Assembly: GCA_017510825.1 (NCBI GenBank)
Contig: JAFWMA010000015.1
Coordinates: forward strand, 23,707-87,706
Origin: Clostridia bacterium
GTDB lineage: Bacteria; Bacillota; Clostridia; TANB77; CAG-508
Length of the DNA: 64,000 nucleotides
Direction: 5' to 3'
The position numbers and the translations under genes are program-made. Position 1 is the first letter of the stretch. Each line of letters begins with the position of its first letter. This document shows, piece by piece, positions 1,745-21,606 of the stretch. The notes under the pieces were generated by a model that ran no database searches, was not told the origin of the DNA, and saw nothing but the letters and a program-made list of their open reading frames with translations.

Positions 1745-2575
1745 CTATAGTCCCATCATTTCTTTTACAATCCTATCGCTCATTCTAATTGTTCCTACTA
1801 GGACTAACATATTAAACAATAACTCTCCCAGGTACTTCCATACCATTGTTATTGCATCATCTCCAGTATTTATTGAAGGAGCAGTTGAAGCAAACATTGT
1901 AAATATTACACAAGAAATAACAATAATAGCTCCTTCTAAACAAACTCCTATGTAACTTTTTATAAAACTTCTTCCTATTTGTTCTGTTCCTTGTCCTGCA
2001 AAAGAACTCAATGGTATTGGTGCTATCGCAGTATATAAATATAATTTAAAGAACCTACCATAAACAGTTAAAATCATAATAAAGGACATAACCGTTATAA
2101 ATAGTCCACCCAGTATAGCTACTGCACCTAATGGGATTGAATCAAAAAATCCTGCATTATCAACTGCTGTTGCTATTTCATTTGGTAGCCAAGATGAATT
2201 TCCTCCACTAATTCCTGTCGCACTTATAATGCTTTGAACTATACCTTGACCAATTTTAAATATTGCAAGCATTAATTCCATTCCATAAGTGACGACAGCT
2301 TTCGCCAGGACGAACCTAATAAACAACTTAAAGGCATGCTCTGGTTTTTTTACTTCTGCAAAATTTCCAAATTGTTTGGCTATGCCTACTACAAAAAATA
2401 ATACCAGTAAAGCAAGTCCAATAGCCTGCATTGCTCCATTTATATTTTCTATTACATTCCAAATTCCACCACCTCGAAACTCTTGTGGACTTTGACTAAC
2501 AATTTGCCACATTTCATTCATTTTTCCATTCCAAGTATCAAGTGATGACCTTAAACTATTTGTAATCCAACTCAC
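1745..2575 (-). CDS. VirB6/TrbL-like conjugal transfer membrane protein
   Basis: Multi-TM; GRFFKLYLYTAIAPIPLSSFAG motif typical of clostridial ICE VirB6-like proteins. Confidence 0.85.
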   Translation of the reverse strand: MSWITNSLRSSLDTWNGKMNEMWQIVSQSPQEFRGGGIWNVIENINGAMQAIGLALLVLFFVVGIAKQFGNFAEVKKPEHAFKLFIRFVLAKAVVTYGMELMLAIFKIGQGIVQSIISATGISGGNSSWLPNEIATAVDNAGFFDSIPLGAVAILGGLFITVMSFIMILTVYGRFFKLYLYTAIAPIPLSSFAGQGTEQIGRSFIKSYIGVCLEGAIIVISCVIFTMFASTAPSINTGDDAITMVWKYLGELLFNMLVLVGTIRMSDRIVKEMMGL

Positions 2576-9843: not shown

Positions 9844-12800
9844 CTAAAATCTGGTATCATTATTTCTATTCAATGGTTTATTTTCTTCTTGTTCTGGACT
9901 ATCATCTATAATCTCGTTTTCATCTTCTTTAATGTTTAACTCTGCATTTAGTATTCTTAATCTTTCTTGTTTTTCTTTTAATTCGTTCTCTTGCGAAAAC
10001 TCCTTTAATACCTCTACCTTTGCAGTGTCTAATTGCTTTTGTAGATTATCTAATTTATCTCTTTCCTCTGGTATTCGTTTTTCAATGTTATCTAATAAAT
10101 TATTTAATCTAGTAATGTTTCCATAAGCATCTGTACCAAGTTCTGTTGTATAACTATACTTATTTCTTAAAGTAGCTTTCATGTTTTTACTAAAAGAATC
10201 AAAACTAATTGATAGACTAAATCCTCTATACTCTCCAATAGTTGTTTCTTCCATTCCTTTTAAATTTTGTAATTCAGCAAGTAATATCTTTCCTGCTTGC
10301 TCCTTTTCTGTATATTCTACATCATTTAATTTCATTGGAGAAAAACCATCAGAATTAGGTCTTGTATATTCTTGTAATTTAATTAAATCTTCTTCCATAC
10401 ATGCTATTCTTCTATCTTGTTTTGAAATAGTTTCTGGAAAATATTTTACTATTTTATCTTGTAAATCATACTTTTGGCTCATAAAATTTTGTTTTAAAAG
10501 TGTTAATTTACTTACATCAGCATCCAAATTTGTTTTTTCTAATATTCTTTTATCGCCAGTTGCTAATGCTTTTATTTCTCCATAGTTCAATGCTCTTTCA
10601 TCAACATCATTCATTGTTCTACTAGGAGATTTGCTTGTCATTATTTGAGATATGAATTTTTGTTTATTTTCTACTAACTGGAATAAGTAGCTATCAAAAG
10701 TACCTTCTGTTACATAGGTATAAGTATGAACTAATTTATTTTGATTTCCTTGTCTTACCATTCTTCCTTCTCTTTGAATTAGGTCAGAAGGTTTCCAAGG
10801 GCAATCTAAATGGTGTAATGCAATAAGTTTATCCTGTACATTTGTTCCTGCACCCATTTTTGCAGTAGATCCTATTAGAATTCTAACTTCTCCACTTCTG
10901 ACTTTATTAAATAGTTCTTTTTTCTTTACTTCTGTATCAGCTTCGTGTATAAATTTTATTTCATCTTCAGGTATTCCTTTTAATATTAGTTTTCTTTTTA
11001 AATCATTATATACATCTTCAAATTGATATTCTTCAGATATCAATTCTTCTTTCGTCATATATGATTTTGGCGTTGATAAATCACAAAAAACCAATTGAGT
11101 AGATTTCTCACTTTTAGTATCGTTCCAAATATTATAAACTATTTTAGAACATTCACTTACCTTACTATTTTCATCATCTTGAAGTATAGGATTCATTAGT
11201 CTTTGTTCTAATGCTAGTTTTCTTCCTTCATTAGTAATTTTTAACATATTATCTACACTACTATCGACTTGATTATTTCTTATTTTCTCTGCTCTGTCTG
11301 CTAATGATAAAACCATTTCCTTTTGCATTTCACTTGGTTTTACAGAAATAATATGACTTTCTAAATCTGGTCTTGGCAAATTTAAAGTATCTTGTGTTTG
11401 AATATCTGCTACTTCTTTAAATAAAGCCATAAGTTCAGGTAAATTATGAAATCTTGCAAATCTTGTTTTTGCTCTATAAGATGTTCCTTCTGGTGCAAGT
11501 TCTACTGCAGTTATTGTTTCTCCAAATGTACTTGCCCAATTATCAAAATGTTCTAATTCATTTCGTTTTAATTCATCATATTGCAAATATCTTTGCATTG
11601 TATATAATTCAGCCATTGTATTTGAAACTGGAGTTCCAGTTGCAAACACCGTACCTTTTCCTCCAGTAATTTCATCTAAATATCTACATTTCATGAACAA
11701 ATCACTTGATTTTTGTGCTTCCGTTTGAGCTATTCCACCAACATTCCTCATTTTAGTATATAAAAATAAGTTTTTATAATTGTGAGCCTCATCTACAAAT
11801 AACTTATCTACGCCTAACTCCTCAAATGTTACTACATCATCTTTTCTATCTTGTTTGTTAAGTTTTTCCAGTCTATTTTCTAATCCTTTTCTAGTTTTTT
11901 CTAATTGTTTTATTGAATAACTTCTACCACCACCATTGTTTTTTTCTTCATTAATACTTGCTAAAATATCAGCTATTTGTTGTTCAAGTAATTCACTTTG
12001 TCTTTCTATGCTCATAGGTATTCTTTCAAACTGACTATGACCTATAATAATAGCATCATAATCTCCAGTTGCTATACGAGAGCAGAACTTTTTTCTATTT
12101 TTAGTTTCAAAGTCCTTTTTAGTTGTAACTAATATATTTGCACTTGGATATAATTGCAAAAACTCATTAGCAAATTGTTCTACTATATGATTTGGAACTG
12201 CTATCATTGGTTTGTTGCATAATCCCAACCTTTTACTTTCCATTGCTGCAGCAACCATTTCAAATGTTTTACCTGCACCAACTTCATGAGCTAATAACAC
12301 ATTATTTCCATATAAAATATGTGCAACTGCATTTAATTGATGTTCCCTTAATTTTATTTCAGGGTTCATTCCTGGGAAAGTCAAATTACTTCCATTAAAA
12401 GTTCTAGGAACAATTGAATTAAATTTATCATTATATAATCTTACAAGTTTTTCTCTTCTTTCAGGAGAATTCCATACCCAATCAAGAAATGTTTGCTTTA
12501 ACAAATCTTGTTTGGCTGTTGCTATTGCAGTTTCTTTTTTATTTAAAACTCTTATTTTATTGCCTTCTTCGTCATATACTTGGTCATAAATTTTTACATC
12601 TTTTAAATTAAGGGTATTTTCAATAATTTTATAAGCATTTATTCTATGAGTTCCATATGTAGAATTAGCTTTTATATTCATACTATCAGCACTTTTATTT
12701 TCAATATACCATTCTCCTGTTACATTTGAATATCTTACTTTTATATCCCATCTCCTATAACTTGGAGTATCCAATGTTTCAAAGATAAATTCTTTTATAA

Positions 12801-15800
12801 CATCTGTTGGTATCCATGTGCTACCTAATTTAATACCAATTTCACTTGCACTAATATCCTTTGGAATTACTTGTTTAAGACTTTCTTTATTTACACTAAA
12901 ACTTTCATCTGTTTCAGATAATGCCTCTGCAATTTTATATTTTTCTCTTACATTTCCAGACAAATATTCATCTGCAGTTTGATATTCAAATTCTTGATTT
13001 TCATTATTATTGCTAAATGGTATTTTATATATTATACCTTTTAATTCTTCTACTATTTGCTCTTTTGCCTTTCCAGTAAGTTTTGACATATAATTCAAAT
13101 CAACTTTAGCTTTTTCTTGTAAAGATACAATTAAAGCCTCATTTGATGTATCAACTCTATCAATTTGCTTTTGTGGTCGAATTGTTCTTTTTGTAAATAT
13201 ATCTGCTTTTCCTATGAAGTTTCCTTCGCCATCAAGATTTTCAAGTGAGCATAAAAGAAAATAACTACTATCTTGAGAAAAAGCACTCATATTACCTCTA
13301 GAGTTAATTAATCCATATTCTTTAGAAAAACTATCATATAGACTATTTAAATCTTTTTGGATATCTTTTATTTCATCATCAGAATATCCATCAAGCTCCA
13401 TTTCCATTAATTTACGAAGTGTATCTCTAATTTGTATTAATTTAATTACTCTATTTTTATTTGTAAGTGGAAGTTCTTGTTTTGTCATTATAGAGTTTTC
13501 TCTAAAATACACATCATTATCAATTAAAGTATAAGAAAAATTCTTTACATTAGGATCTGCAGGAATAGTTTCAATATCATCTTGTTCTATATCTTGTTCA
13601 ACTTGATAATCAGATATTTCTGCATGAATATTTGTAATGGCATATTTGAGTTGTTCTTCTAGTGATGTGCTTTCATCAGCTTTACAAGTTGAGTCATATC
13701 CATATTGAGTAGATTCCATTTCCATATTTCCAAGTATCATTTCAGGATTATCTACAAAATACTTATTCATTGTAATATTATTTTCATCTTTGTCTAAATA
13801 AACCCAATCTGGCATAATATCTGTCATATTATCTCTTTTTTGTAAGAATATAATATCAGATGTTACTTTTGTTCCTGCGTTATCAGTAAATGTATTATCT
13901 GGCAATCTAATTGCACCAATTAAGTCTGCTCTTTGTGCAATATATTTTCTTACCTCTGGATTTTCTTTATCCATTGTTCCTTTGCTCGTAATAAATGCAA
14001 TTATTCCTCCTGGTCTAACTTTATCTAATGTTTTTGCAAAGAAATAGTCGTGAATCATAAAATTATTTTTATCATATTTTCTGTCATTTACCTTAAAACT
14101 TCCAAAAGGAACATTTCCTACAGCAATATCAAAAAAACTATCTTGAAGAATAGACTTCTCGTATCCTTTGACTTGAATATTAGCTTTTTGATAAAGTTGT
14201 TCTGCGATTCTTCCACTTATACTATCAAGTTCAACCCCATAAAGTTTAGACTCTTCTAACTCATTTGGAATTAGACCTAAAAAGTTTCCAACTCCACAAC
14301 TAGGCTCTAAAATATTCCCTTTTTCAAATCCCATGTTCTGAATTGCACTATAAATTGATTTAATAACAATTGGAGGTGTATAAAATGCAGTTAATGTACT
14401 AGCTCTTGCTGAATTATATTCTTCTTCAGTTAGTAATTCTTTTAGTTCAAGATATTCATCTCTATAATTTGTTTTATTGTCATCAAATACATCAGGTAAT
14501 CCTCCCCAACCTACATATTTTGATAATATCTCTTGTTCTGTTGGATTAGCTAAATTATGCTCTGATTCTAATCTCTTTAATACTTTTATAGCAGCTATAT
14601 TATTAGCAATTTTTTCTTTTGGTGTGGTAACTCCAAGATTATCATTATTAATTCTAAAGTTTGTAAGAGGTTGATATACTGCATTTACAGGCAAAGGCTC
14701 GACATTTTCTTCTCTCTTTTTTAATAAATTGTTTATATTTTCAGCCTGCTCTATATCTCTCCTTTCTTCTTTTAAATCTTTATACAAACTTTTATCTATT
14801 TCTTTATAGTATCTGTTAAATAATTCAATGAAAACATTTAAAGAACTATCTAATTTTTCGTCTATTCCTCCTTCAGCTAATTTTACTTGATTTAAATAAT
14901 CTATCTCTTTTTGAATTGACTCTTTATCATTAAGAAAATCTAGAACATCTTTTATGTGTTCTTCTTTTGTTTTTTTAGCCTCTAAATTTTCTTCATAATC
15001 AAATTCATCTGTATCAGGTTCTTCCCAGTCAAAAATATTATTATCTATACAAAATTCCACATAATTACTAGCAAAATCTTCTTTCAGTTTTTCTTCATAA
15101 TCTAGGAATTCTTCTTTTTCTTTGTAAGTTAAATATGTTCCATCTTCTATAAATTTTTGAACTCGCTCTGCTACTTTGTTCCAATTAAGTATTATTTCAT
15201 TATCACCTTTTTTTATCTTTAACCCTTTAGTGTTGAAATCAACCCATCCATTTTCTATTGAATATCCACCTTGTCCATATTCATTTTTTAAGAACTCTGA
15301 TGCTCTTTCATTATTATATGGATTTACTAAATGTTCATAAATTCTAAACTTACTATGCTCTACATTGCCTCCTTCCTTTATAATGCTGTCTATTTCTTCT
15401 TGTGATATAAAAAAAGCAGAAGTATTTTCTTTTACCTCTGCTTCTTGTATTATTTCATCTTGTTCTTCTTCTGTTCTATTAGTTGTAAAAAGATTTAATT
15501 GTATATTAGTTCCTGGTACACTATTTCCTCTGCTTGATTCTTCAAGTTGTTCATATTTTGTACCCAAAGAAGTTGATTTTCCTGTTTCATTTTCTCGTCT
15601 ATCTTGTTTTTCTTCGCTAGTTCCATTACTAACTGGTTCACTTTCTCCGTTACTTGTTTGTCTATTTCTATCAAGTGATTGTTTAGCTCTCCTGTCATCA
15701 ACAATTCTGTCCACAATCCCCTCTTGTGTTCCTTGATGTAATTCAACCTCATTCTCCCATATTTTCCTATGTTCAATTTGTTCTGTGGCTCTATTGTTAT

Positions 15801-16683
15801 ATCTGGTATCATATAATCTCCCTCTTTGTGATATGTTATTTCCATTTTCTTCTCTCCTTTCATTATTATTTTTGCTTTTGTTAATTTCATTATAATTTGA
15901 TTTAGTTTTATCATCAAATGTGTAATTTTTATTTTTATACTTTTTGTTTAATTCTCGATTAGTTTCACTTATTTCTCTTAATCCATTTTCAGCAATATCG
16001 CTTGTTGCAATTCCAAGTTTAGAAACTACTCCTATAGTATTAAAATTAACAATTTCTCTAAAATCTTCTGTTTCAATAAAATCTTCTGGATTTAAGCCAC
16101 AGCGTTTTAGCATTATATATGCAACACTATTTGATAATATTTTTCTAAAATAGTAACTTAATGTATCTTCATCTAAATCACTTAAAAAACTATCTTTTGT
16201 AGAGTTTTTTAATTCATTATAGTAGTCTTGAAAATTATCTTCTACCATATTATAACTACTTGATATAATTGCCTCTGACAAACTATCTTTCATTTCTAAA
16301 ACACCAAATGAAGACTCTAAATCTTCTATAATTTCATTATCAAAAATATGATTTATTTCCCATATCTCTACTTTTCTTCCAAATTTATCATAAGTATCAG
16401 ATATGTCGAAAACATGTCTTAAACCAGTCCCATTATTATCTAATAGAGCTATTCCTTTTGCTCCTTTTCTTATCCATCTATGCAATCTTTTATTCCAAGT
16501 GTCTATATCAGCACAAGCAATAGCATCTGGTCTTTGTGCAAAAATTAATACCTGATCAGAGAAATTATATTTATAATTATTACTTGCAGTATCAAGAAAG
16601 CTTATCCAATTTTCAGGAGTATTCGTAATTCTTTTTAATTCGTTACTAAAGATTTCTTTAGTTGTTTCTAGCTTATTTGCCAT
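9844..16683 (-). CDS. Giant ArdC-like N-terminus / DNA methyltransferase / SNF2 helicase fusion (DarB-like)
   Basis: NNYKYNFSDQVLIFAQRPDA ArdC-like motif; LEPSCGVGNF and VGNVPF MTase motifs; LAHEVGAGKT, DEAH, QREGRMVRQGN helicase motifs. Confidence 0.92.
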   Translation of the reverse strand: MANKLETTKEIFSNELKRITNTPENWISFLDTASNNYKYNFSDQVLIFAQRPDAIACADIDTWNKRLHRWIRKGAKGIALLDNNGTGLRHVFDISDTYDKFGRKVEIWEINHIFDNEIIEDLESSFGVLEMKDSLSEAIISSSYNMVEDNFQDYYNELKNSTKDSFLSDLDEDTLSYYFRKILSNSVAYIMLKRCGLNPEDFIETEDFREIVNFNTIGVVSKLGIATSDIAENGLREISETNRELNKKYKNKNYTFDDKTKSNYNEINKSKNNNERREENGNNISQRGRLYDTRYNNRATEQIEHRKIWENEVELHQGTQEGIVDRIVDDRRAKQSLDRNRQTSNGESEPVSNGTSEEKQDRRENETGKSTSLGTKYEQLEESSRGNSVPGTNIQLNLFTTNRTEEEQDEIIQEAEVKENTSAFFISQEEIDSIIKEGGNVEHSKFRIYEHLVNPYNNERASEFLKNEYGQGGYSIENGWVDFNTKGLKIKKGDNEIILNWNKVAERVQKFIEDGTYLTYKEKEEFLDYEEKLKEDFASNYVEFCIDNNIFDWEEPDTDEFDYEENLEAKKTKEEHIKDVLDFLNDKESIQKEIDYLNQVKLAEGGIDEKLDSSLNVFIELFNRYYKEIDKSLYKDLKEERRDIEQAENINNLLKKREENVEPLPVNAVYQPLTNFRINNDNLGVTTPKEKIANNIAAIKVLKRLESEHNLANPTEQEILSKYVGWGGLPDVFDDNKTNYRDEYLELKELLTEEEYNSARASTLTAFYTPPIVIKSIYSAIQNMGFEKGNILEPSCGVGNFLGLIPNELEESKLYGVELDSISGRIAEQLYQKANIQVKGYEKSILQDSFFDIAVGNVPFGSFKVNDRKYDKNNFMIHDYFFAKTLDKVRPGGIIAFITSKGTMDKENPEVRKYIAQRADLIGAIRLPDNTFTDNAGTKVTSDIIFLQKRDNMTDIMPDWVYLDKDENNITMNKYFVDNPEMILGNMEMESTQYGYDSTCKADESTSLEEQLKYAITNIHAEISDYQVEQDIEQDDIETIPADPNVKNFSYTLIDNDVYFRENSIMTKQELPLTNKNRVIKLIQIRDTLRKLMEMELDGYSDDEIKDIQKDLNSLYDSFSKEYGLINSRGNMSAFSQDSSYFLLCSLENLDGEGNFIGKADIFTKRTIRPQKQIDRVDTSNEALIVSLQEKAKVDLNYMSKLTGKAKEQIVEELKGIIYKIPFSNNNENQEFEYQTADEYLSGNVREKYKIAEALSETDESFSVNKESLKQVIPKDISASEIGIKLGSTWIPTDVIKEFIFETLDTPSYRRWDIKVRYSNVTGEWYIENKSADSMNIKANSTYGTHRINAYKIIENTLNLKDVKIYDQVYDEEGNKIRVLNKKETAIATAKQDLLKQTFLDWVWNSPERREKLVRLYNDKFNSIVPRTFNGSNLTFPGMNPEIKLREHQLNAVAHILYGNNVLLAHEVGAGKTFEMVAAAMESKRLGLCNKPMIAVPNHIVEQFANEFLQLYPSANILVTTKKDFETKNRKKFCSRIATGDYDAIIIGHSQFERIPMSIERQSELLEQQIADILASINEEKNNGGGRSYSIKQLEKTRKGLENRLEKLNKQDRKDDVVTFEELGVDKLFVDEAHNYKNLFLYTKMRNVGGIAQTEAQKSSDLFMKCRYLDEITGGKGTVFATGTPVSNTMAELYTMQRYLQYDELKRNELEHFDNWASTFGETITAVELAPEGTSYRAKTRFARFHNLPELMALFKEVADIQTQDTLNLPRPDLESHIISVKPSEMQKEMVLSLADRAEKIRNNQVDSSVDNMLKITNEGRKLALEQRLMNPILQDDENSKVSECSKIVYNIWNDTKSEKSTQLVFCDLSTPKSYMTKEELISEEYQFEDVYNDLKRKLILKGIPEDEIKFIHEADTEVKKKELFNKVRSGEVRILIGSTAKMGAGTNVQDKLIALHHLDCPWKPSDLIQREGRMVRQGNQNKLVHTYTYVTEGTFDSYLFQLVENKQKFISQIMTSKSPSRTMNDVDERALNYGEIKALATGDKRILEKTNLDADVSKLTLLKQNFMSQKYDLQDKIVKYFPETISKQDRRIACMEEDLIKLQEYTRPNSDGFSPMKLNDVEYTEKEQAGKILLAELQNLKGMEETTIGEYRGFSLSISFDSFSKNMKATLRNKYSYTTELGTDAYGNITRLNNLLDNIEKRIPEERDKLDNLQKQLDTAKVEVLKEFSQENELKEKQERLRILNAELNIKEDENEIIDDSPEQEENKPLNRNNDTRF
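15495..15845 (-). CDS. tnpV: TnpV family protein, nested in +1 frame within the helicase-methylase gene
   Basis: MEITYHKEGDYMIPDI...IGKYGRMRLNYIKEH...GELNNHLIEID...WVQNMNNLKNQAEEIVYQELIY; AAAGGAG RBS 8 nt before ATG at 15845. Confidence 0.8.
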   Translation of the reverse strand: MEITYHKEGDYMIPDITIEPQNKLNIGKYGRMRLNYIKEHKRGLWTELLMTGELNNHLIEIDKQVTEKVNQLVMELAKKNKIDEKMKQENQLLWVQNMNNLKNQAEEIVYQELIYN

Positions 16684-16700
16684 AATCTCACTCCTTTCTT

Positions 16701-16949
16701 TTAATTTGTGTTTTCATTTGGATTGTTTAATTTTGATAAAAAGCCCATTACTCCATTCTCATCTTTTGATTTTAGAGAACTAATAGTTTCTCTAATTTCG
16801 ATAATGTTATTAATATCTACTCTTTTATAATCTCCAAGTTTAGGAAGATCTTCAATTTTCATTTCCATTACTTGTTTATCCTTTGTAAAACCATTTTTTA
16901 TTAGTCTTTCTACTGTCATCATTTTTAAATTTGGCTTTTTACCTGACAT
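16701..16949 (-). CDS. Hypothetical protein
   Basis: 82-aa ORF with AGGAGGAG RBS. Confidence 0.65.
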   Translation of the reverse strand: MSGKKPNLKMMTVERLIKNGFTKDKQVMEMKIEDLPKLGDYKRVDINNIIEIRETISSLKSKDENGVMGFLSKLNNPNENTN

Positions 16950-16969
16950 ATTTTCTCCTCCTTTCTTAT

Positions 16970-17002
16970 AAAAAGAGCTAGAAGATTTTTCTCCTAGCTC
17001 TT
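16970..17002 (-). terminator. Intrinsic terminator after adhesin gene
   Basis: AAGAGCTAG/CTAGCTCTT stem plus U-run. Confidence 0.7.
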
Positions 17003-17015
17003 AATTTATAAAATC

Positions 17016-20000
17016 TTAATTTTTCTTACCTTTAAAGAATTTGATAATAATCCAAACTAAACCAAGTACAGCTAACAATACTATTCCAAATGCTAGTCGT
17101 AAATAACTATTGTCCCCTGTTTTTGGTGTAGGAATTAACTTATCTTCAAAATCAAAAGTTATAGTATTATCTGTTTCTTCTACTAATGTATCATCAACAA
17201 AAATACCTTTGTCATTTATTTCAACTTTTACTATTTTTTCTGATAATTCATATCCTTTAGGTGCTTTTGTTTCTTTTATATAATATGTTCCATATCTTAA
17301 ATCTTTAAATATAACAAAGCCATCCTCTTTATTTGCCTCTATTTCAGCTATTAAGTCTGAACATTCACTATCACGATAAATTCCAAATGAGAATTTTTCT
17401 TTGATAGTTTCTTTTGTTTCGCTATCTACTTTGTTTATCTTGATATTCTTTAAAATTGGCATATCTTTCATTTCTACTTTTTGTGTTTCTTTATCTGTTG
17501 TTACTTCAAATTCAATTTTTTCTGTTAGTTCATAACCATAAGGAGCTGTTTTTTCAATAAGTGTGTATTTTTTACCTTCTTCTAGTCCAGGAACTTTATG
17601 TGGCTCTTTTGTAGATGTCCACTCATCTATTATATTTCCTTCTTCATCTACAATTTGTAATTCTGCTCCTTCAATTTCTTCTCCTGTTACTAAATCAGTT
17701 TTTACTATTTCAACCAATTTATCTATCATAACAACTTTTTGTGTTTCTTTTTCTAGAGTAACTTTAAATTCAACATCAGATGCTTTAACATAATCTCCAA
17801 TAGCAACTTCTTCATGTAATTTATAAGTTTCTCCTTCAGTAAGTCCTGTTACTTTATGAGGTTCTTTTGTAGAAGTCCATTCTTCAATTACATTATTATC
17901 TTTGTCTAATACTTGAAGTTTTGCTCCTTCAATTTCTTCTCCTGCAATGTCTTCTTTTGATATTTCAACTATCTTATCTATTAAGTCAATATGTTGATTT
18001 TCTTTATCTGTTGTTACTTCAAATCCAATGTCAGTAGCTTTTACATATCCATCTGGTGCAACTTCTTCGTGTAAAACATATTTCTTACCTTCTTCTAGTC
18101 CATTTATTTTATGTGGCTCTTTTGAAGATGTCCACTCATCTATAATATTGCCTTCTTCATCAAATACTTTAATTTCTGCACCTTCAATTTCTTCTCCACC
18201 AATATCAGTTTTTGTCATATCTACTATTTTGTCTTTCATTTGAACATGTTGTACTTCTTTAGTATCTTCAACTTTAAATGAGATAGATGTAGCTTTTACA
18301 TATCCATCTGGTGCTATTACCTCTGTCATAATGTATTCTTTGCCTATGACTAATCCTTCAATTGTATGTTTGTTTTCTGTAGAAGTCCATTCGTCTACGA
18401 CATTTCCTTCTTTATCTGTTATTGTTAATTTTGCTCCAGGTAACTCTTTATCTCCTGTAACATCTGTCTTTGAAAAATCAAATAATGTTGTATCATTAGA
18501 AATATTCAATTGTTCATCATAAACTTTTGTTACTAAATCCTTTTGTGTAAACTTAACTTCGTATTTATCTCTGTTTAATACAAGTCCATCTAATGTCTTA
18601 GTTTCTTCTATTTCATAAGTTCCCATTGGAAGTTCTGAAATAGTTAATTTTCCATCTTTAGTTAGATTATATTTATTTATTTCTTGACCTTTAGTATAGA
18701 TTTTGCTACCATCAGCCATATCAATAATATCTTCTTTTGCAATTAATTTAAATTCAATACCAGATAAATCAGATGTATCTATAAGTGATGTATCTACATT
18801 TTCTCTGATAGCAATTTCTTTATCTAAAAGTATTCTACCTGTTGGTTGCTCATTTTTTACAACTACTTCTTTAATAAAATCTCCGTCTTTGTCAGTGTCA
18901 TAATCTTTAATATTCTTAATTTCAAAAGTAACAGGTTTATCTAATTGTAAAAATCCATTAGGTACTCTTATTTCAGTAATTTCATAACTACCTACAGGTA
19001 ATTTTAATGGAGTTGTAACTTCTGCTTTATTATCATTTTCTGTATTAAATGAATTATCAGGAACTACTATATTGTCTGCATTTGTTGTAAATGAAGTATA
19101 TGTTGTATTTCCTATTTTTTGAGAAATTGCCTCTCCCTTTTTGAATAATATCTTTTTAGTAGCACGATCATATATATCTTTTGTCGCTTTTATTTCAAAT
19201 GTTGTAGAATTCAATGTAACATTTTTTCCTGTTTTTAAGTCTTTCTTTACTATTTTTATATAAGACTCTAATTGTTCATTATTAACTACAATGTGTTTTG
19301 TTTTCTTTGGAATTTCTTGTATTTCTGTTTCATCATCAGTAATTGAAAATGTGAAATCTACTGCTGTTTCGTAATCAGTTGGTGTTTTTGTTTCTTTTAC
19401 AATAAATTTACCATAAGGTAAGTTCTTTTGTGTATAAGCATTACCATCTTTATCAGTTTTTATTACCTCATAAGTTGGAGCTATAACTTGTGCCTCTGAA
19501 ACTCTTTGACTATTTACATTTACTTTATTCCCGTTTTCATCTATTCCATTCCAAACTTCTGCATAAGTATAACCTTGTTCGTATGCTTTTTCTACTGCTG
19601 AATTTAATTTAATTGTAAATTCTGCACCCTCTAATCCTGGAGTTTCTCCTGAATTAACTTTAATTCCTGATTTGAAAACATGTACTCCCATTTCTTTAAC
19701 CTTTTCTAAACTTGTTGTTGTATTAGAAATTACAGGAGTATTTTGGTCTTTATATACTAAATTAACTTCATATTCCTTTGTATCTAGCATATAACCTAAA
19801 GATGCTCTATCTTCTTTAACAACATATTTTCCTAAAGGTAATTCAGTAATATCTTCAGTTTTTCCTTTTTCATCCATAGTACGAGTTGCAACTAAATCTC
19901 CATTAGAATAGAATTTTTTAGTTCTAGCTTTATTATAAATATCTTCTTTTGCATATACTTTATATACTGCACCTGTAAATATTGCATCTCCTTGAGGTAC

Positions 20001-21527
20001 TGATCCTGTTTTACTATCTTTTTTAATAATAGTTATACTTCCTGTTGGTTCTTCATCAATTACTCCCTCAACATTTAGGTATATTACTTTTGTTAGTTCG
20101 TCTTTATATTTAAGTTCTGCATCAAATTCTTTAGTATTCAACAAATATCCATCAGGAGCATTTGTTTCTTTAACATAGTAATGACCTATATGTAAATTAG
20201 TAAATGTTACCATTCCGTCTGCATTAGTAGTTGCTTTTGTTATTAAATCTCCTTTTTTATGCCATGTAATTGTTCCTGCTACATTCTTAATGTCTTCTTT
20301 TGCATATAAAGAAATTTCTGCGTCTTTTAGTTTATTATTATAATCATCTGTCTTATATACTTTGACTTCTCCTGTAGGTTCTGTATTTACAACTGCTTGA
20401 GTTGCAGTTTGATTTACTTTAACTTCTACATCATAAGCTTTTGTATCAATTAAATAACCATAAGGAACTGATTTTTCAACTATTGTATAAGTTCCTTTCT
20501 TTAGTTTTTCTATTGTTATTTTTCCATTTGTTACTTCTACATCTTTGTTATAATCATTTGGTCCTCTAACATTAAATACTGCACCATTAACTAAATCTCC
20601 ATTTGTATTTAATTTTTGAAGTTCAATTTTACCAAATGCTTCAATTTTTAATGACATTCTAAAAGAGATAGGATCATTATAATGCATTGAATACAATTGA
20701 TTTTGTACTCCATCTCTAAATTCAAAATAAATCATTGTATCATTATCTTGTGTATCTTCTCTTATTAATCCCCATGACTTAAATGTTGAGTCTGAAATAT
20801 TATAATTTTCAAGAGTTGTATTTTCATCAACTGAAATTGTTAAAGTATTTTCTCCTTTGTTGTGTGTAAATGTTATTCCATCTTGAGTTCTATTTACACT
20901 TTCATATTTTGAAAACACACCATAATCATCAGATATTGTTTTACTTTCTCCTGCTTGTACTGTTATAGTTGCTCCATCAAAACTTGGTCTTCTTTCCATA
21001 TCTGCAATTTGATTTTCAATATTGTTTTTGAAATTTTCATAATCAGCTTGAACTGAACCATCTATAAATGTTGCACTACTTTGTCCTAATACTTCCCAAA
21101 TATATTGTTGTGTAAATACATAATCTTGTTTTACCCATTTCATATCACTTGCAGTAATTCCACCATCTACGGCATAATCTCCATATTGAGAATACCACCC
21201 TAGGTAAGCTACCTTACATGCTTTTTTGATTGTTGAATTGCTTGGAGTATAATATTCTCCATTGTATGCTGTACTAGTTGCAAACTCAACACCATGTTCA
21301 GCACAGAACACAGTCTTTTTCTCCATTGTGTTTAAATCAATTAAATATCTAATAATAATGCCATATTGTGTATTTGCATTATCAGTTGTTTTCATATATG
21401 AGGCATATTGTCCTCCTGCATATCTTCCACTACCTGATGCTGCAAATATTGGCGTTGCATTAGTAATAAATAAAATCATTAACATTAAAAATGCTATAAT
21501 TTTCTTAAATTTTGATGTTTTTATCAT
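17016..21527 (-). CDS. SpaA/CnaB isopeptide-domain surface adhesin, sortase-anchored
   Basis: Signal peptide, repeated GTYxxxExxAPxGY prealbumin-like domains, tandem ~85-90-aa repeats, C-terminal TPKTGD + TM + basic tail; ATG at 21527 after GGAGG. Confidence 0.9.
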   Translation of the reverse strand: MIKTSKFKKIIAFLMLMILFITNATPIFAASGSGRYAGGQYASYMKTTDNANTQYGIIIRYLIDLNTMEKKTVFCAEHGVEFATSTAYNGEYYTPSNSTIKKACKVAYLGWYSQYGDYAVDGGITASDMKWVKQDYVFTQQYIWEVLGQSSATFIDGSVQADYENFKNNIENQIADMERRPSFDGATITVQAGESKTISDDYGVFSKYESVNRTQDGITFTHNKGENTLTISVDENTTLENYNISDSTFKSWGLIREDTQDNDTMIYFEFRDGVQNQLYSMHYNDPISFRMSLKIEAFGKIELQKLNTNGDLVNGAVFNVRGPNDYNKDVEVTNGKITIEKLKKGTYTIVEKSVPYGYLIDTKAYDVEVKVNQTATQAVVNTEPTGEVKVYKTDDYNNKLKDAEISLYAKEDIKNVAGTITWHKKGDLITKATTNADGMVTFTNLHIGHYYVKETNAPDGYLLNTKEFDAELKYKDELTKVIYLNVEGVIDEEPTGSITIIKKDSKTGSVPQGDAIFTGAVYKVYAKEDIYNKARTKKFYSNGDLVATRTMDEKGKTEDITELPLGKYVVKEDRASLGYMLDTKEYEVNLVYKDQNTPVISNTTTSLEKVKEMGVHVFKSGIKVNSGETPGLEGAEFTIKLNSAVEKAYEQGYTYAEVWNGIDENGNKVNVNSQRVSEAQVIAPTYEVIKTDKDGNAYTQKNLPYGKFIVKETKTPTDYETAVDFTFSITDDETEIQEIPKKTKHIVVNNEQLESYIKIVKKDLKTGKNVTLNSTTFEIKATKDIYDRATKKILFKKGEAISQKIGNTTYTSFTTNADNIVVPDNSFNTENDNKAEVTTPLKLPVGSYEITEIRVPNGFLQLDKPVTFEIKNIKDYDTDKDGDFIKEVVVKNEQPTGRILLDKEIAIRENVDTSLIDTSDLSGIEFKLIAKEDIIDMADGSKIYTKGQEINKYNLTKDGKLTISELPMGTYEIEETKTLDGLVLNRDKYEVKFTQKDLVTKVYDEQLNISNDTTLFDFSKTDVTGDKELPGAKLTITDKEGNVVDEWTSTENKHTIEGLVIGKEYIMTEVIAPDGYVKATSISFKVEDTKEVQHVQMKDKIVDMTKTDIGGEEIEGAEIKVFDEEGNIIDEWTSSKEPHKINGLEEGKKYVLHEEVAPDGYVKATDIGFEVTTDKENQHIDLIDKIVEISKEDIAGEEIEGAKLQVLDKDNNVIEEWTSTKEPHKVTGLTEGETYKLHEEVAIGDYVKASDVEFKVTLEKETQKVVMIDKLVEIVKTDLVTGEEIEGAELQIVDEEGNIIDEWTSTKEPHKVPGLEEGKKYTLIEKTAPYGYELTEKIEFEVTTDKETQKVEMKDMPILKNIKINKVDSETKETIKEKFSFGIYRDSECSDLIAEIEANKEDGFVIFKDLRYGTYYIKETKAPKGYELSEKIVKVEINDKGIFVDDTLVEETDNTITFDFEDKLIPTPKTGDNSYLRLAFGIVLLAVLGLVWIIIKFFKGKKN

Positions 21528-21606
21528 CTTTAATTCCTCCATTTCTTTGTTTTTAAGCACAAAAAAGAACAAGTATTTTTACTTGTTCTTGCGTCTTATT
21601 ATTTAA

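Follow-up and report, generated by a model that had tools for sequence, protein, structure and literature searches.

A TnpV-family gene nested in the +1 frame of a giant polyvalent-type gene within a conjugative element of a Clostridia bacterium

The DNA analyzed here (hereafter the window) is a 64,000-nt stretch of a Clostridia bacterium genome (GenBank assembly GCA_017510825.1, contig JAFWMA010000015.1, positions 23,707 to 87,706), and all coordinates refer to positions within it. The window carries an ICE with a tyrosine integrase gene (PF00589) adjoining secA, together with genes for ParA/ParB, a relaxase, a T4 coupling protein, and PrgI. Within this element, a very large ORF on the minus strand contains a second, complete ORF on the same strand, and the features of the locus are as follows.

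9844 to 16683, minus strand: host gene for a 2279-aa polyvalent-type ICE protein (N-terminal domain, disordered linker, Eco57I-like methylase region, and SNF2 helicase)
15925 to 16683, minus strand: folded N-terminal domain of the host product, aa 1-253 (AlphaFold2 pLDDT ~90), with codon variability in the normal host phase
15889 to 15917, minus strand: putative promoter-like element (TTGATG, 17 nt, TATAAT) within the host ORF, 44 nt upstream of the tnpV ATG
15854 to 15860, minus strand: Shine-Dalgarno sequence of tnpV (AAAGGAG), 8 nt before the ATG
15495 to 15845, minus strand: tnpV coding sequence (116 codons and a TAA stop), +1 relative to the host frame
15481 to 15924, minus strand: host-frame linker, aa 254-401, which spans the whole tnpV cassette
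15409 to 15441, minus strand: putative terminator-like hairpin (GCAGAGGUA / UACUUCUGC, then U7) within the host ORF, 56 nt past the tnpV stop

The host product was matched to SNF2-rel_dom, Helicase_C, and ResIII in Pfam, and its methylase region was matched to Eco57I at 25.1 bits, just below the cut-off of 25.3; one homologue is named an N12 class adenine methylase in its source record. A total of 5553 homologues were recovered at E ≤ 0.001, and nearly all of the best 120 of these 5553 span residues 1-520 completely. The N-terminal domain returned a weak local match to Rad4 in Foldseek (probability 0.51 over 45 columns). The first-pass annotation had called this an ArdC domain, a label that is otherwise found only in the RefSeq name of distant Listeria homologues (36% identity over aa 11-97; “ArdC-like ssDNA-binding domain-containing protein”), whereas searches of Pfam, NCBIfam, PDB sequences, and Foldseek gave nothing significant for the domain. 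With multiple effector domains and conjugation genes adjacent to it, the host gene resembles the polyvalent proteins described by Iyer et al. (2017, PMC5512222), which are likewise giant and multidomain, begin with an N-terminal “header”, contain methylase and SWI2/SNF2 ATPase domains, and lie near T4SS and relaxase genes. That paper makes no mention of TnpV, overlapping genes, or frameshifts.

The internal ATG lies 838 nt downstream of the host ATG (position 16683), which places the nested ORF in the +1 frame, and the overlap covers host residues 280-396. The 116-aa ORF, noted in the first reading of the sequence as lying wholly within the 2279-aa ORF and offset from it by one base, was recovered by ORF translation. 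That reading had also assigned the peptide to the TnpV family, and the Pfam search bore this out, with an end-to-end match to PF14198 (E 1.1e-39, 135.2 bits against a gathering cut-off of 27; product residues 4-114 aligned to model positions 1-111 of 111). The product has the size of a single-domain TnpV (~110-125 aa; homologues are 116-135 aa), is 58-65% identical to the nearest called TnpV proteins, and lies on a mobile element carrying an integrase and conjugation genes, the kind of location expected for the family. A serine recombinase (the TnpX-type neighbor that is typical of the prototype but does not define the family) was absent from the ICE genes examined. The AlphaFold2 model of the nested product (pLDDT 90.6) predicts a beta-hairpin and a helical bundle in a 13-kDa protein. 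No significant match to this model was obtained from PDB or BFVD using Foldseek, and the TnpV profile gave chance-level matches only against PDB sequences. A lambda-Xis-like role had earlier been suggested for TnpV (PMC3158075), but a fold of that type is unsupported here, since the confident model matches no solved fold. Our best guess, held with low confidence, is that TnpV serves conjugative or mobilizable elements as an accessory factor, acting together with the polyvalent protein or in DNA processing.

The host frame over the same DNA encodes a segment of a very different kind. The linker had been described as hydrophilic, and its hydrophobic fraction is indeed low (0.16 vs 0.35 in the host N-terminal domain); it was predicted by AlphaFold2 to be disordered, with pLDDT ~30 and without secondary structure. 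Diversity at host codon positions 1/2/3 is ~0.33/0.26/0.50 in the N-terminal domain, shifts to 0.41-0.52/0.31-0.48/0.23-0.32 over aa 271-398, and reverts to the host pattern beyond aa 402, so that codon-position variability takes the TnpV phase exactly over the overlap. Frame-specific selection was calculated using an OLGenie-type estimate, which is based on 59 ungapped codons only and gave dNN/dSN of 0.18 (CI 0.12-0.26) for the TnpV frame and dNN/dNS of 1.29 (CI 0.85-2.3) for the host frame. Amino acid identity across the overlap was 54% in the TnpV frame vs 37.5% in the host frame and was higher for TnpV in 98.7% of pairs. The TnpV frame, where frequent stops would have spoken against a gene, is intact in all related loci.

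Openness of the host frame was compared with expectation by resampling synonymous TnpV codons. Zero host-frame stops were found across the overlap in 60 loci, against ~11 expected per locus, and the third sense frame has ~22 stops per locus over this stretch; the initial remark had been that both frames stay open despite the very AT-rich sequence, and chance does not account for this. Free-standing tnpV controls contain 2-20 stops in the equivalent host frame (16 in each of two free-standing paralogues from the same genome), and stop counts are bimodal, with 27 loci having none and 61 having at least two. The constraint can be read as a codon rule in nested tnpV, in which a codon ending in T never precedes a codon beginning with AA, AG, or GA. 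Selection therefore does act on the host frame, though almost only against stops, which are kept out by the choice among synonymous codons in tnpV. The dual-coding claim of the first-pass annotation is supported by the codon-phase switch, the frame-specific dN/dS values, the identity comparison, and the predicted linker disorder; its view of TnpV as the conserved product and of the linker as a passenger holds, with the amendment that the linker frame is still kept stop-free by selection. These data show that selection maintains both frames but constrains each in a different way. A 123-aa ORF on the opposite strand (15365-15736, plus strand) was also considered as a third, antisense gene and was rejected, given that its frame is open in only 18/60 loci; it is a by-product of the dual-coding constraint.

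The same layout was found throughout the relatives. A tnpV ORF occupies the same +1 position (host aa ~255-282) in 80/80 GTDB loci with host N-terminal domains of 38-66% identity, as counted by direct translation. Our own HMM, when run on whole-frame translations with stops written as X, missed 24 of these 80 because very long pseudo-proteins were being searched, and later searches used stop-to-stop pieces. Four further loci with host N-terminal domains of 31-37% identity also have a nested tnpV. Giant SNF2 genes on plasmids of C. perfringens, C. botulinum, E. faecalis, R. albus, and L. monocytogenes contain nested tnpV with Pfam scores of 84.9, 86.1, 52.6, 31.6, and 29.0 bits, respectively. 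In total, more than 85 loci, with host N-terminal domain identities from 66% to ~25%, have an intact tnpV ORF with a full-length HMM match, although the loci are kin to each other and these counts are not independent events. Nested genes are spread over at least two classes of Bacillota and make up about one third of the tnpV genes sampled in the class that was sampled. The nested layout is thus ancient and widespread across conjugative elements of Bacillota. In RefSeq, tnpV is unannotated within these giant plasmid genes and is omitted by gene callers when the giant gene is intact, as had been anticipated from the window itself (one frame lost by standard callers).

The start region of tnpV has recognizable signals. 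The AAAGGAG reported 8 nt ahead of the ATG is present at 15860-15854, and among 60 loci, 54 have a GGAG and 46 have it at a distance of 8-9 nt from the ATG. A conserved host-frame “ER[SRG]” motif is encoded by this Shine-Dalgarno sequence. In-frame (+1) stops lie zero or one codon before the tnpV ATG in three relatives (L018, L048, and L049), Cohnella has two such stops one codon before it, and in E. faecalis, C. perfringens, and others they fall between the Shine-Dalgarno sequence and the ATG or just before the former. As far as the sequence itself goes, tnpV has translation-initiation signals of its own.

Further upstream, the promoter-like element is the top sigma-70-type match within 15300-16800 (10/12 positions). 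The pattern TTGnnn-N16-18-TAnnnT recurs at -60 to -75 in 59/64 nested loci, including GC-richer ones, with AATCGCACATTTG conserved, and the -35 and -10 boxes coincide with host residues “NRTF” and “Y[HDN]”, which are conserved. Part of the motif (AATCGCACATT...TAcAAT) is also found upstream of some free-standing tnpV genes. Conservation is confined to a Clostridia-type clade, with the motif absent from the Enterococcus, Listeria, C. botulinum, and R. albus versions, and promoter-like matches in the AT-rich region as a whole are not enriched over shuffled sequence. Downstream of tnpV, the hairpin was folded as RNA with a dG of -17.5 kcal/mol (z -6.6). A strong hairpin with a T-run follows tnpV in 10/60 loci (about one sixth), in comparison to 1/420 control windows elsewhere in these genes and 0/120 within tnpV. 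When folded individually, subfamilies with different host peptides were found to have different stems (z -2.9 to -7.3), and RNAalifold returned no consensus structure for 13 post-tnpV segments, since their hairpins do not share a register. Given that an intrinsic terminator within a 6.8-kb gene would lower expression of the host, the role of the hairpin is uncertain. Taken together, the Shine-Dalgarno sequence and ATG, the upstream stops, the promoter-like element, and the hairpin point to a tnpV that may be expressed independently and point away from a frameshift fusion.

The locus is very probably a genuine same-strand nested pair, in which a tnpV cassette sits inside a giant polyvalent-type ICE gene and both readings are kept. 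The cassette would consist of the promoter-like element, the Shine-Dalgarno sequence, the ATG, the 116-codon ORF, and the terminator-like hairpin. Ribosomes starting at the host ATG would read frame 0 and make a disordered, hydrophilic linker of ~150 residues between the N-terminal domain and the methylase/helicase body, and ribosomes entering at the internal Shine-Dalgarno sequence and ATG would read frame +1 and make TnpV as a folded 13-kDa protein. Selection acts at the amino acid level on the TnpV frame and almost solely against stops on the host frame. From the signals described above, we infer that tnpV is translated independently from its own start, and its transcription most likely begins at an internal promoter that belongs to it. 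Transcripts of tnpV may stop at the hairpin, while ribosomes translating the host frame would pass through it and so let the long mRNA continue.

Several other explanations were weighed against this one, and the closest to it keeps the internal start but leaves tnpV to be read on the long host mRNA only, with the promoter-like and terminator-like elements being non-functional and conserved on other grounds, for instance to preserve host residues or signals in the DNA. The promoter-like motif is missing from the most divergent nested versions, matches of this kind are as frequent in shuffled sequence, and strong hairpins occur in a subset of loci only, all of which would fit such an arrangement. 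We nevertheless consider it unlikely, given that the geometry of -35 box, 17 nt, and -10 box is kept in 59/64 nested loci and partly upstream of some free-standing tnpV genes, and that hairpin structure rather than sequence is kept across subfamilies whose host peptides differ. A programmed +1 frameshift, raised at the outset as an alternative that would fuse the ArdC-labeled N-terminal domain to TnpV and leave tnpV with no initiation of its own, is unsupported. An internal Shine-Dalgarno sequence is able to stimulate frameshifting, as in prfB, and one is present at tnpV, where the +1 frame in the window also remains open over the 34 codons preceding the ATG. However, in L018, L048, L049, Cohnella, and E. 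faecalis such a fusion would be interrupted by +1 stops 0-3 codons ahead of the ATG, the ATG keeps its 8-9 nt distance from GGAG, free-standing TnpV proteins (~118 aa) have the same N-terminus as the nested one, and a conserved slippery site was not seen; we give the frameshift very little credence.

Of the remaining two explanations, one dispenses with tnpV and the other splits the host gene. The giant protein alone might matter, with the TnpV-frame ORF having arisen by chance or being a relic that no longer functions, and its being skipped by gene callers whenever the giant gene is intact would agree with this, but the dNN/dSN of 0.18, the switch of codon phase to the TnpV frame, and an ORF kept intact in more than 85 loci next to a third sense frame with ~22 stops make this scarcely conceivable. 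Conversely, the giant ORF might not encode one protein, the N-terminal domain and the methylase/helicase being separate genes with an incidentally open host frame between them, which would agree with a host-frame amino acid sequence that evolves neutrally and is predicted to be disordered. The absence of host-frame stops in 60 loci, the bimodal stop counts, and the 16 stops of the free-standing paralogues from the same genome argue against such a split, no initiation signal for a separate gene was seen beyond the linker, and we regard it as highly improbable.

TnpV proteins of Tn4451/Tn4453 and Tn6104-6106 belong to the same family (PF14198), are of the same size, and are likewise found on mobile elements of Firmicutes. 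Those tnpV genes are free-standing and lie beside large serine recombinases or at the ends of IMEs (PMC3158075, PMC9815147). In contrast to the Tn4451-type genes, the nested tnpV lies out of frame in a giant gene, and the integrase of its ICE is of the tyrosine type. Among known nested genes, comS of Bacillus subtilis (46 codons, nested in srfAB, restricted to one lineage, and transcribed with srfA) is similar in being a small shifted-frame gene on the same strand and wholly inside a very large multidomain gene. It differs in that tnpV has 116 codons, belongs to a widespread family that also occurs free-standing, and seems to carry promoter-like and terminator-like signals. Rz1 of lambda (~60 codons) is embedded in Rz, with both products made and acting as partners in one function; like tnpV, it lies whole in the +1 frame of a second mobile-element gene, whereas over the tnpV overlap the host product is a predicted disordered linker only. 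The overlapping genes nog1, pop, ano, and asa of E. coli O157:H7 are antisense, young, and taxonomically restricted (PMC4683798, PMC7103648). They share with tnpV a long, non-trivial overlap of the sort excluded by annotation pipelines, but tnpV overlaps its host on the same strand, the overlap is ancient and strongly constrained by purifying selection, and the product falls in a curated family. A description of this nesting was not found in the literature on TnpV, on overlapping or overprinting genes in conjugative elements, or on polyvalent proteins.

Two opposite histories of the pair were considered. Overprinting within the disordered linker of an ancestral polyvalent protein may have given rise to the TnpV family, which would later have escaped several times with its promoter, as a free-standing cassette, into IMEs and mobilizable transposons such as Tn4451. 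The TnpV lineages that diverge most (Listeria, Enterococcus, R. albus, C. botulinum, and C. perfringens) are all nested, nested TnpV co-diverges with the host gene (Spearman 0.67), and the TnpV tree requires at least three switches between the nested and free states. These observations point toward overprinting, which we put forward as a possible but on balance doubtful origin. In the opposite direction, two genes may have fused across a tnpV cassette that already existed and thereby captured it. Were birth by overprinting true, a curated and widespread family would be a case of de novo gene birth within another gene.

Long, non-trivial overlaps are thought to be very rare in bacteria, with most proposals being young, antisense, and disputed, and only a few long overlapping genes are regarded as fully established (PMC9927249). 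Against this background, tnpV and its host would be a rare and clean long overlapping pair, comprising a 116-codon same-strand gene under strong purifying selection whose product is in a curated family. The nesting was found in every relative examined, and the host family comprises thousands of database clusters. Since RefSeq annotates either tnpV or the giant gene and never both, pangenome, ICE, and plasmid annotations systematically lose one of the two. The pair offers a natural system for studying how two frames are kept open, by a mechanism that can be read as a synonymous-codon rule in tnpV, and it may likewise serve for a transcription unit living inside a 6.8-kb ORF and for the movement of a gene between nested and free-standing states. 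Knowing where tnpV most commonly resides in genomes should guide experiments on TnpV.

The nested open reading frame (ORF) described in the first-pass annotation, with its +1 offset and an AAAGGAG at 8 nt, was present on the minus strand of the window, and the nesting of tnpV is confirmed:

9844-16683 (-), ORF of the giant host gene, 2279 codons
15495-15845 (-), tnpV ORF inside the host ORF, ATG at 15845, TAA at 15495-15497, 116-aa product
15860-15854 (-), Shine-Dalgarno sequence AAAGGAG, 8 nt before the tnpV ATG

The host and inner ATGs are 838 nt apart, and the inner ORF occupies the +1 frame over host residues 280-396. Its assignment to the TnpV family was borne out by an end-to-end match to Pfam PF14198 (135.2 bits, cut-off 27, E 1e-39). 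The giant protein contains SNF2 and Helicase_C domains plus an Eco57I-like methylase region, and conforms to the "polyvalent protein" class defined by Iyer et al. 2017 (PMC5512222). No match to its first 250 residues was found in Pfam, NCBIfam or PDB; distant Listeria homologues carry the RefSeq name "ArdC-like ssDNA-binding domain-containing protein". The gene is located in an integrative conjugative element (ICE), with neighbors that include a tyrosine integrase adjoining secA, ParA and ParB, a SpaA-type surface protein of 1518 aa, a Toprim/DUF3991 protein, a NikA/MobC protein, a MobA/VirD2-type relaxase, a VirD4-type coupling protein and PrgI. Directly upstream of the giant gene, 16701-21572 (-) encodes an 82-aa ORF with no Pfam match and the 1518-aa protein, which has 11 SpaA (prealbumin-like) repeats; the order SpaA then giant gene was also observed on R. 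albus pRUMAL02 (L131; L-numbers denote single loci from other genomes or contigs).

Homologues of the host protein number thousands, and among the best 120 nearly all span residues 1-520 unbroken. Eighty loci were retrieved from species-representative genomes by using the N-domain alone (38-66% identity), 74 of them from Bacillota, mostly Clostridia and Bacilli metagenome-assembled genomes. All 80 had a TnpV ORF at host residue ~255-282, in the +1 frame. Stops in this frame, which the first-pass annotation would have taken as refutation had they been frequent among homologues, were limited to one internal stop (L082); the only other defects were ATT for ATG (L035), a host frameshift (L081) and contig-end truncation. 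In four further loci with an N-domain just 31-37% identical, tnpV was nested likewise. RefSeq plasmids, too, have giant genes (named "SNF2-related" or "helicase-related") with a nested tnpV that is absent from the annotation of these records, and all five peptides exceeded the Pfam threshold:

Clostridium botulinum plasmid, 86.1 bits
Clostridium perfringens plasmid, 84.9 bits
Enterococcus faecalis plasmid, 52.6 bits
Ruminococcus albus plasmid, 31.6 bits
Listeria monocytogenes plasmid, 29.0 bits

Both genes were annotated together in none of the RefSeq records examined (L126-L133). For Monoglobus (L126) and Cohnella (L127), a "TnpV protein" is annotated, and the giant ORF, which is interrupted, does not appear in the gene table (pseudogenes are not listed there); for plasmids L128-L133, the giant gene is annotated intact and tnpV is missing. 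Among 90 tnpV loci sampled class-wide from 300 genomes, host-frame stop counts were bimodal (27 loci with none, 61 with two or more). The ORF enclosing each of the 27 zero-stop loci almost always extended to the limits of the retrieved sequence (>800 codons); where the sampling was less biased, 23/60 loci were nested.

Four tests agree that the TnpV frame is the one under selection. Nucleotide diversity was calculated by host codon position:

N-domain, positions 1/2/3: ~0.33 / ~0.26 / ~0.50
overlap (host residues 271-398), positions 1/2/3: 0.41-0.52 / 0.31-0.48 / 0.23-0.32

The overlap has an ordinary coding pattern in TnpV phase, and the host pattern returns after residue 402. An OLGenie-type count over 250 sequence pairs, which supplied the frame-specific ratios called for in the first-pass annotation, gave a dNN/dSN of 0.18 for the TnpV frame (95% CI 0.12-0.26) versus a dNN/dNS of 1.29 for the host frame (CI 0.85-2.3). 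Mean identity over the same DNA was 54% for TnpV peptides and 37.5% for host-frame peptides (N-domain, 55%), and conservation was higher for TnpV in 98.7% of pairs. In an AlphaFold2 prediction from an alignment of host residues 1-470, residues 1-253 had a pLDDT of ~90 and residues 254-401 a pLDDT of ~30 with no secondary structure. These results support the original interpretation of dual coding, in which TnpV is the conserved product and the host linker a by-product.

The host frame is nevertheless protected. Each TnpV protein was held fixed and its synonymous codons were redrawn from the codon usage of the same gene; ~11 host-frame stops per locus were expected versus none observed in 60 loci. 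Only 0.03% of redraws on average (maximum for any single locus, 1.3%) left the host frame open. The underlying synonymous-codon rule is that a T-ending TnpV codon never precedes a codon beginning AA, AG or GA. As controls, the third sense frame held ~22 stops per locus and free-standing tnpV genes held 2-20 stops in the host-equivalent frame, including two paralogues in the window's own genome (G000):

contig C15 25602-25940 = L120 3603-3941 (+), free-standing tnpV, 16 stops
contig C14 1449-1787 = L121 (-), free-standing tnpV, 16 stops

The antisense frame over tnpV has few stops (mean 1.7 in 60 loci). An antisense ORF at 15365-15736 (+), 123 codons, was rejected as a third gene: its frame is fully open in just 18 of these loci, and it seems to be a side effect of the constraints on the two sense frames.

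Of 60 loci, 54 have GGAG upstream of the tnpV ATG, mostly 8-9 nt away, and this Shine-Dalgarno sequence accounts for the ER[SRG] motif conserved in the host frame. Two further signals were identified in the window:

15917-15889 (-), promoter-like element TTGATG-17-TATAAT, the best promoter-like match of the region
15441-15409 (-), terminator-like hairpin plus U7, beginning 56 nt after the tnpV stop (dG -17.5 kcal/mol, z -6.6)

In 59/64 nested loci, the pattern TTGnnn-N16-18-TAnnnT, embedded in conserved AATCGCACATTTG, lies 60-75 nt ahead of the ATG; its boxes encode the "conserved" NRTF and Y[HDN] of the host frame. The pattern is partly common to some free-standing tnpV genes and absent from the most divergent nested versions. 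The motif AATCGCACATT reaches past the -35 box (window 15918-15960 (-)) and also lies upstream of tnpV in L105 and L107; since nested and some free-standing genes have it in common, it might serve as an operator or other DNA signal and not solely as a promoter. Strong hairpin-plus-T-runs followed tnpV in 10/60 loci; they were seen in only 1/420 control windows taken from the same genes outside tnpV, and in 0/120 windows inside it. Subfamilies with differing host peptides have stems that differ yet still fold, and no common-register hairpin consensus was found across loci. From these sequence signals we infer that nested tnpV is expressed, and the cassette resembles a complete transcription unit lying within an ORF. 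Speculatively, ribosomes in the host frame would translate through the hairpin and allow the long mRNA to continue, and tnpV transcripts would end there. The first-pass annotation had offered a +1 frameshift fusion to the N-domain as an alternative. It is rejected as the general mechanism because stops lie close upstream of the ATG in several loci: zero or one codon before it in L018, L048 and L049 (+1 frame), two stops one codon ahead in Cohnella, and stops between the Shine-Dalgarno sequence and ATG or just before them in E. faecalis, C. perfringens and others.

The TnpV model is confident (AlphaFold2 pLDDT 90.6) and consists of a beta-hairpin and five helices; it had no significant match among PDB and BFVD structures, and a profile search for solved relatives found none. 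A lambda-Xis-like role once suggested for TnpV (quoted in PMC3158075) was not supported by the fold and is mismatched with the presence of a tyrosine integrase in the ICE. Free-standing copies were found at borders of islands and integrative mobilizable elements (IMEs), so TnpV always travels with conjugative or mobilizable DNA. In L101 (~1901-1911 (-)) and L103 (1423-1433 (+)), tnpV lies just inside the IME end TTTTGCGGACA, and the IME interrupts an SNF2 helicase gene at its DCPWRPSD motif; both the 11-bp repeat and the target agree with those of the snf2-targeting IMEs of Streptococcus suis (PMC9815147). tnpV is thus related to giant genes twice, nested in their linker and carried on IMEs that insert into their helicase part. 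In L054 (Anaerofustis butyriciformans), the giant ORF ends after 1863 codons and a second TnpV of free-standing type (~15831-16194, four host-frame stops) lies ~7.8 kb past the start of the gene; an IME may have entered the helicase region here. The free-standing genes nearest to the window copy (58-60% identical; L002-L005, 6371-6664, and L122-L125) invariably precede a conserved 97-aa ORF with no Pfam match and lie at island borders adjoining defence-type genes such as AbiEii and HEPN_AbiU2; in L002, tnpV also adjoins a comM-like Mg-chelatase gene.

In the TnpV tree, which is poorly resolved (the protein is short), nested and free-standing copies are mixed, and the branches with good support require three switches or more. 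All of the longest and most divergent lineages are nested, and TnpV identity follows host N-domain identity (Spearman 0.67). These sequence relationships would fit a history in which tnpV was nested in ancient times and the cassette later escaped repeatedly; capture of a pre-existing tnpV cassette by gene fusion may instead have produced the arrangement.

Nested out-of-frame genes are already known as a kind, such as comS in srfAB and Rz1 in Rz. Searchable papers on TnpV, overlapping or overprinted bacterial genes and polyvalent proteins do not mention this nesting. What is new is the combination of size, a family that is also free-standing, embedded promoter- and terminator-like signals, age and spread, and systematic loss from annotation.
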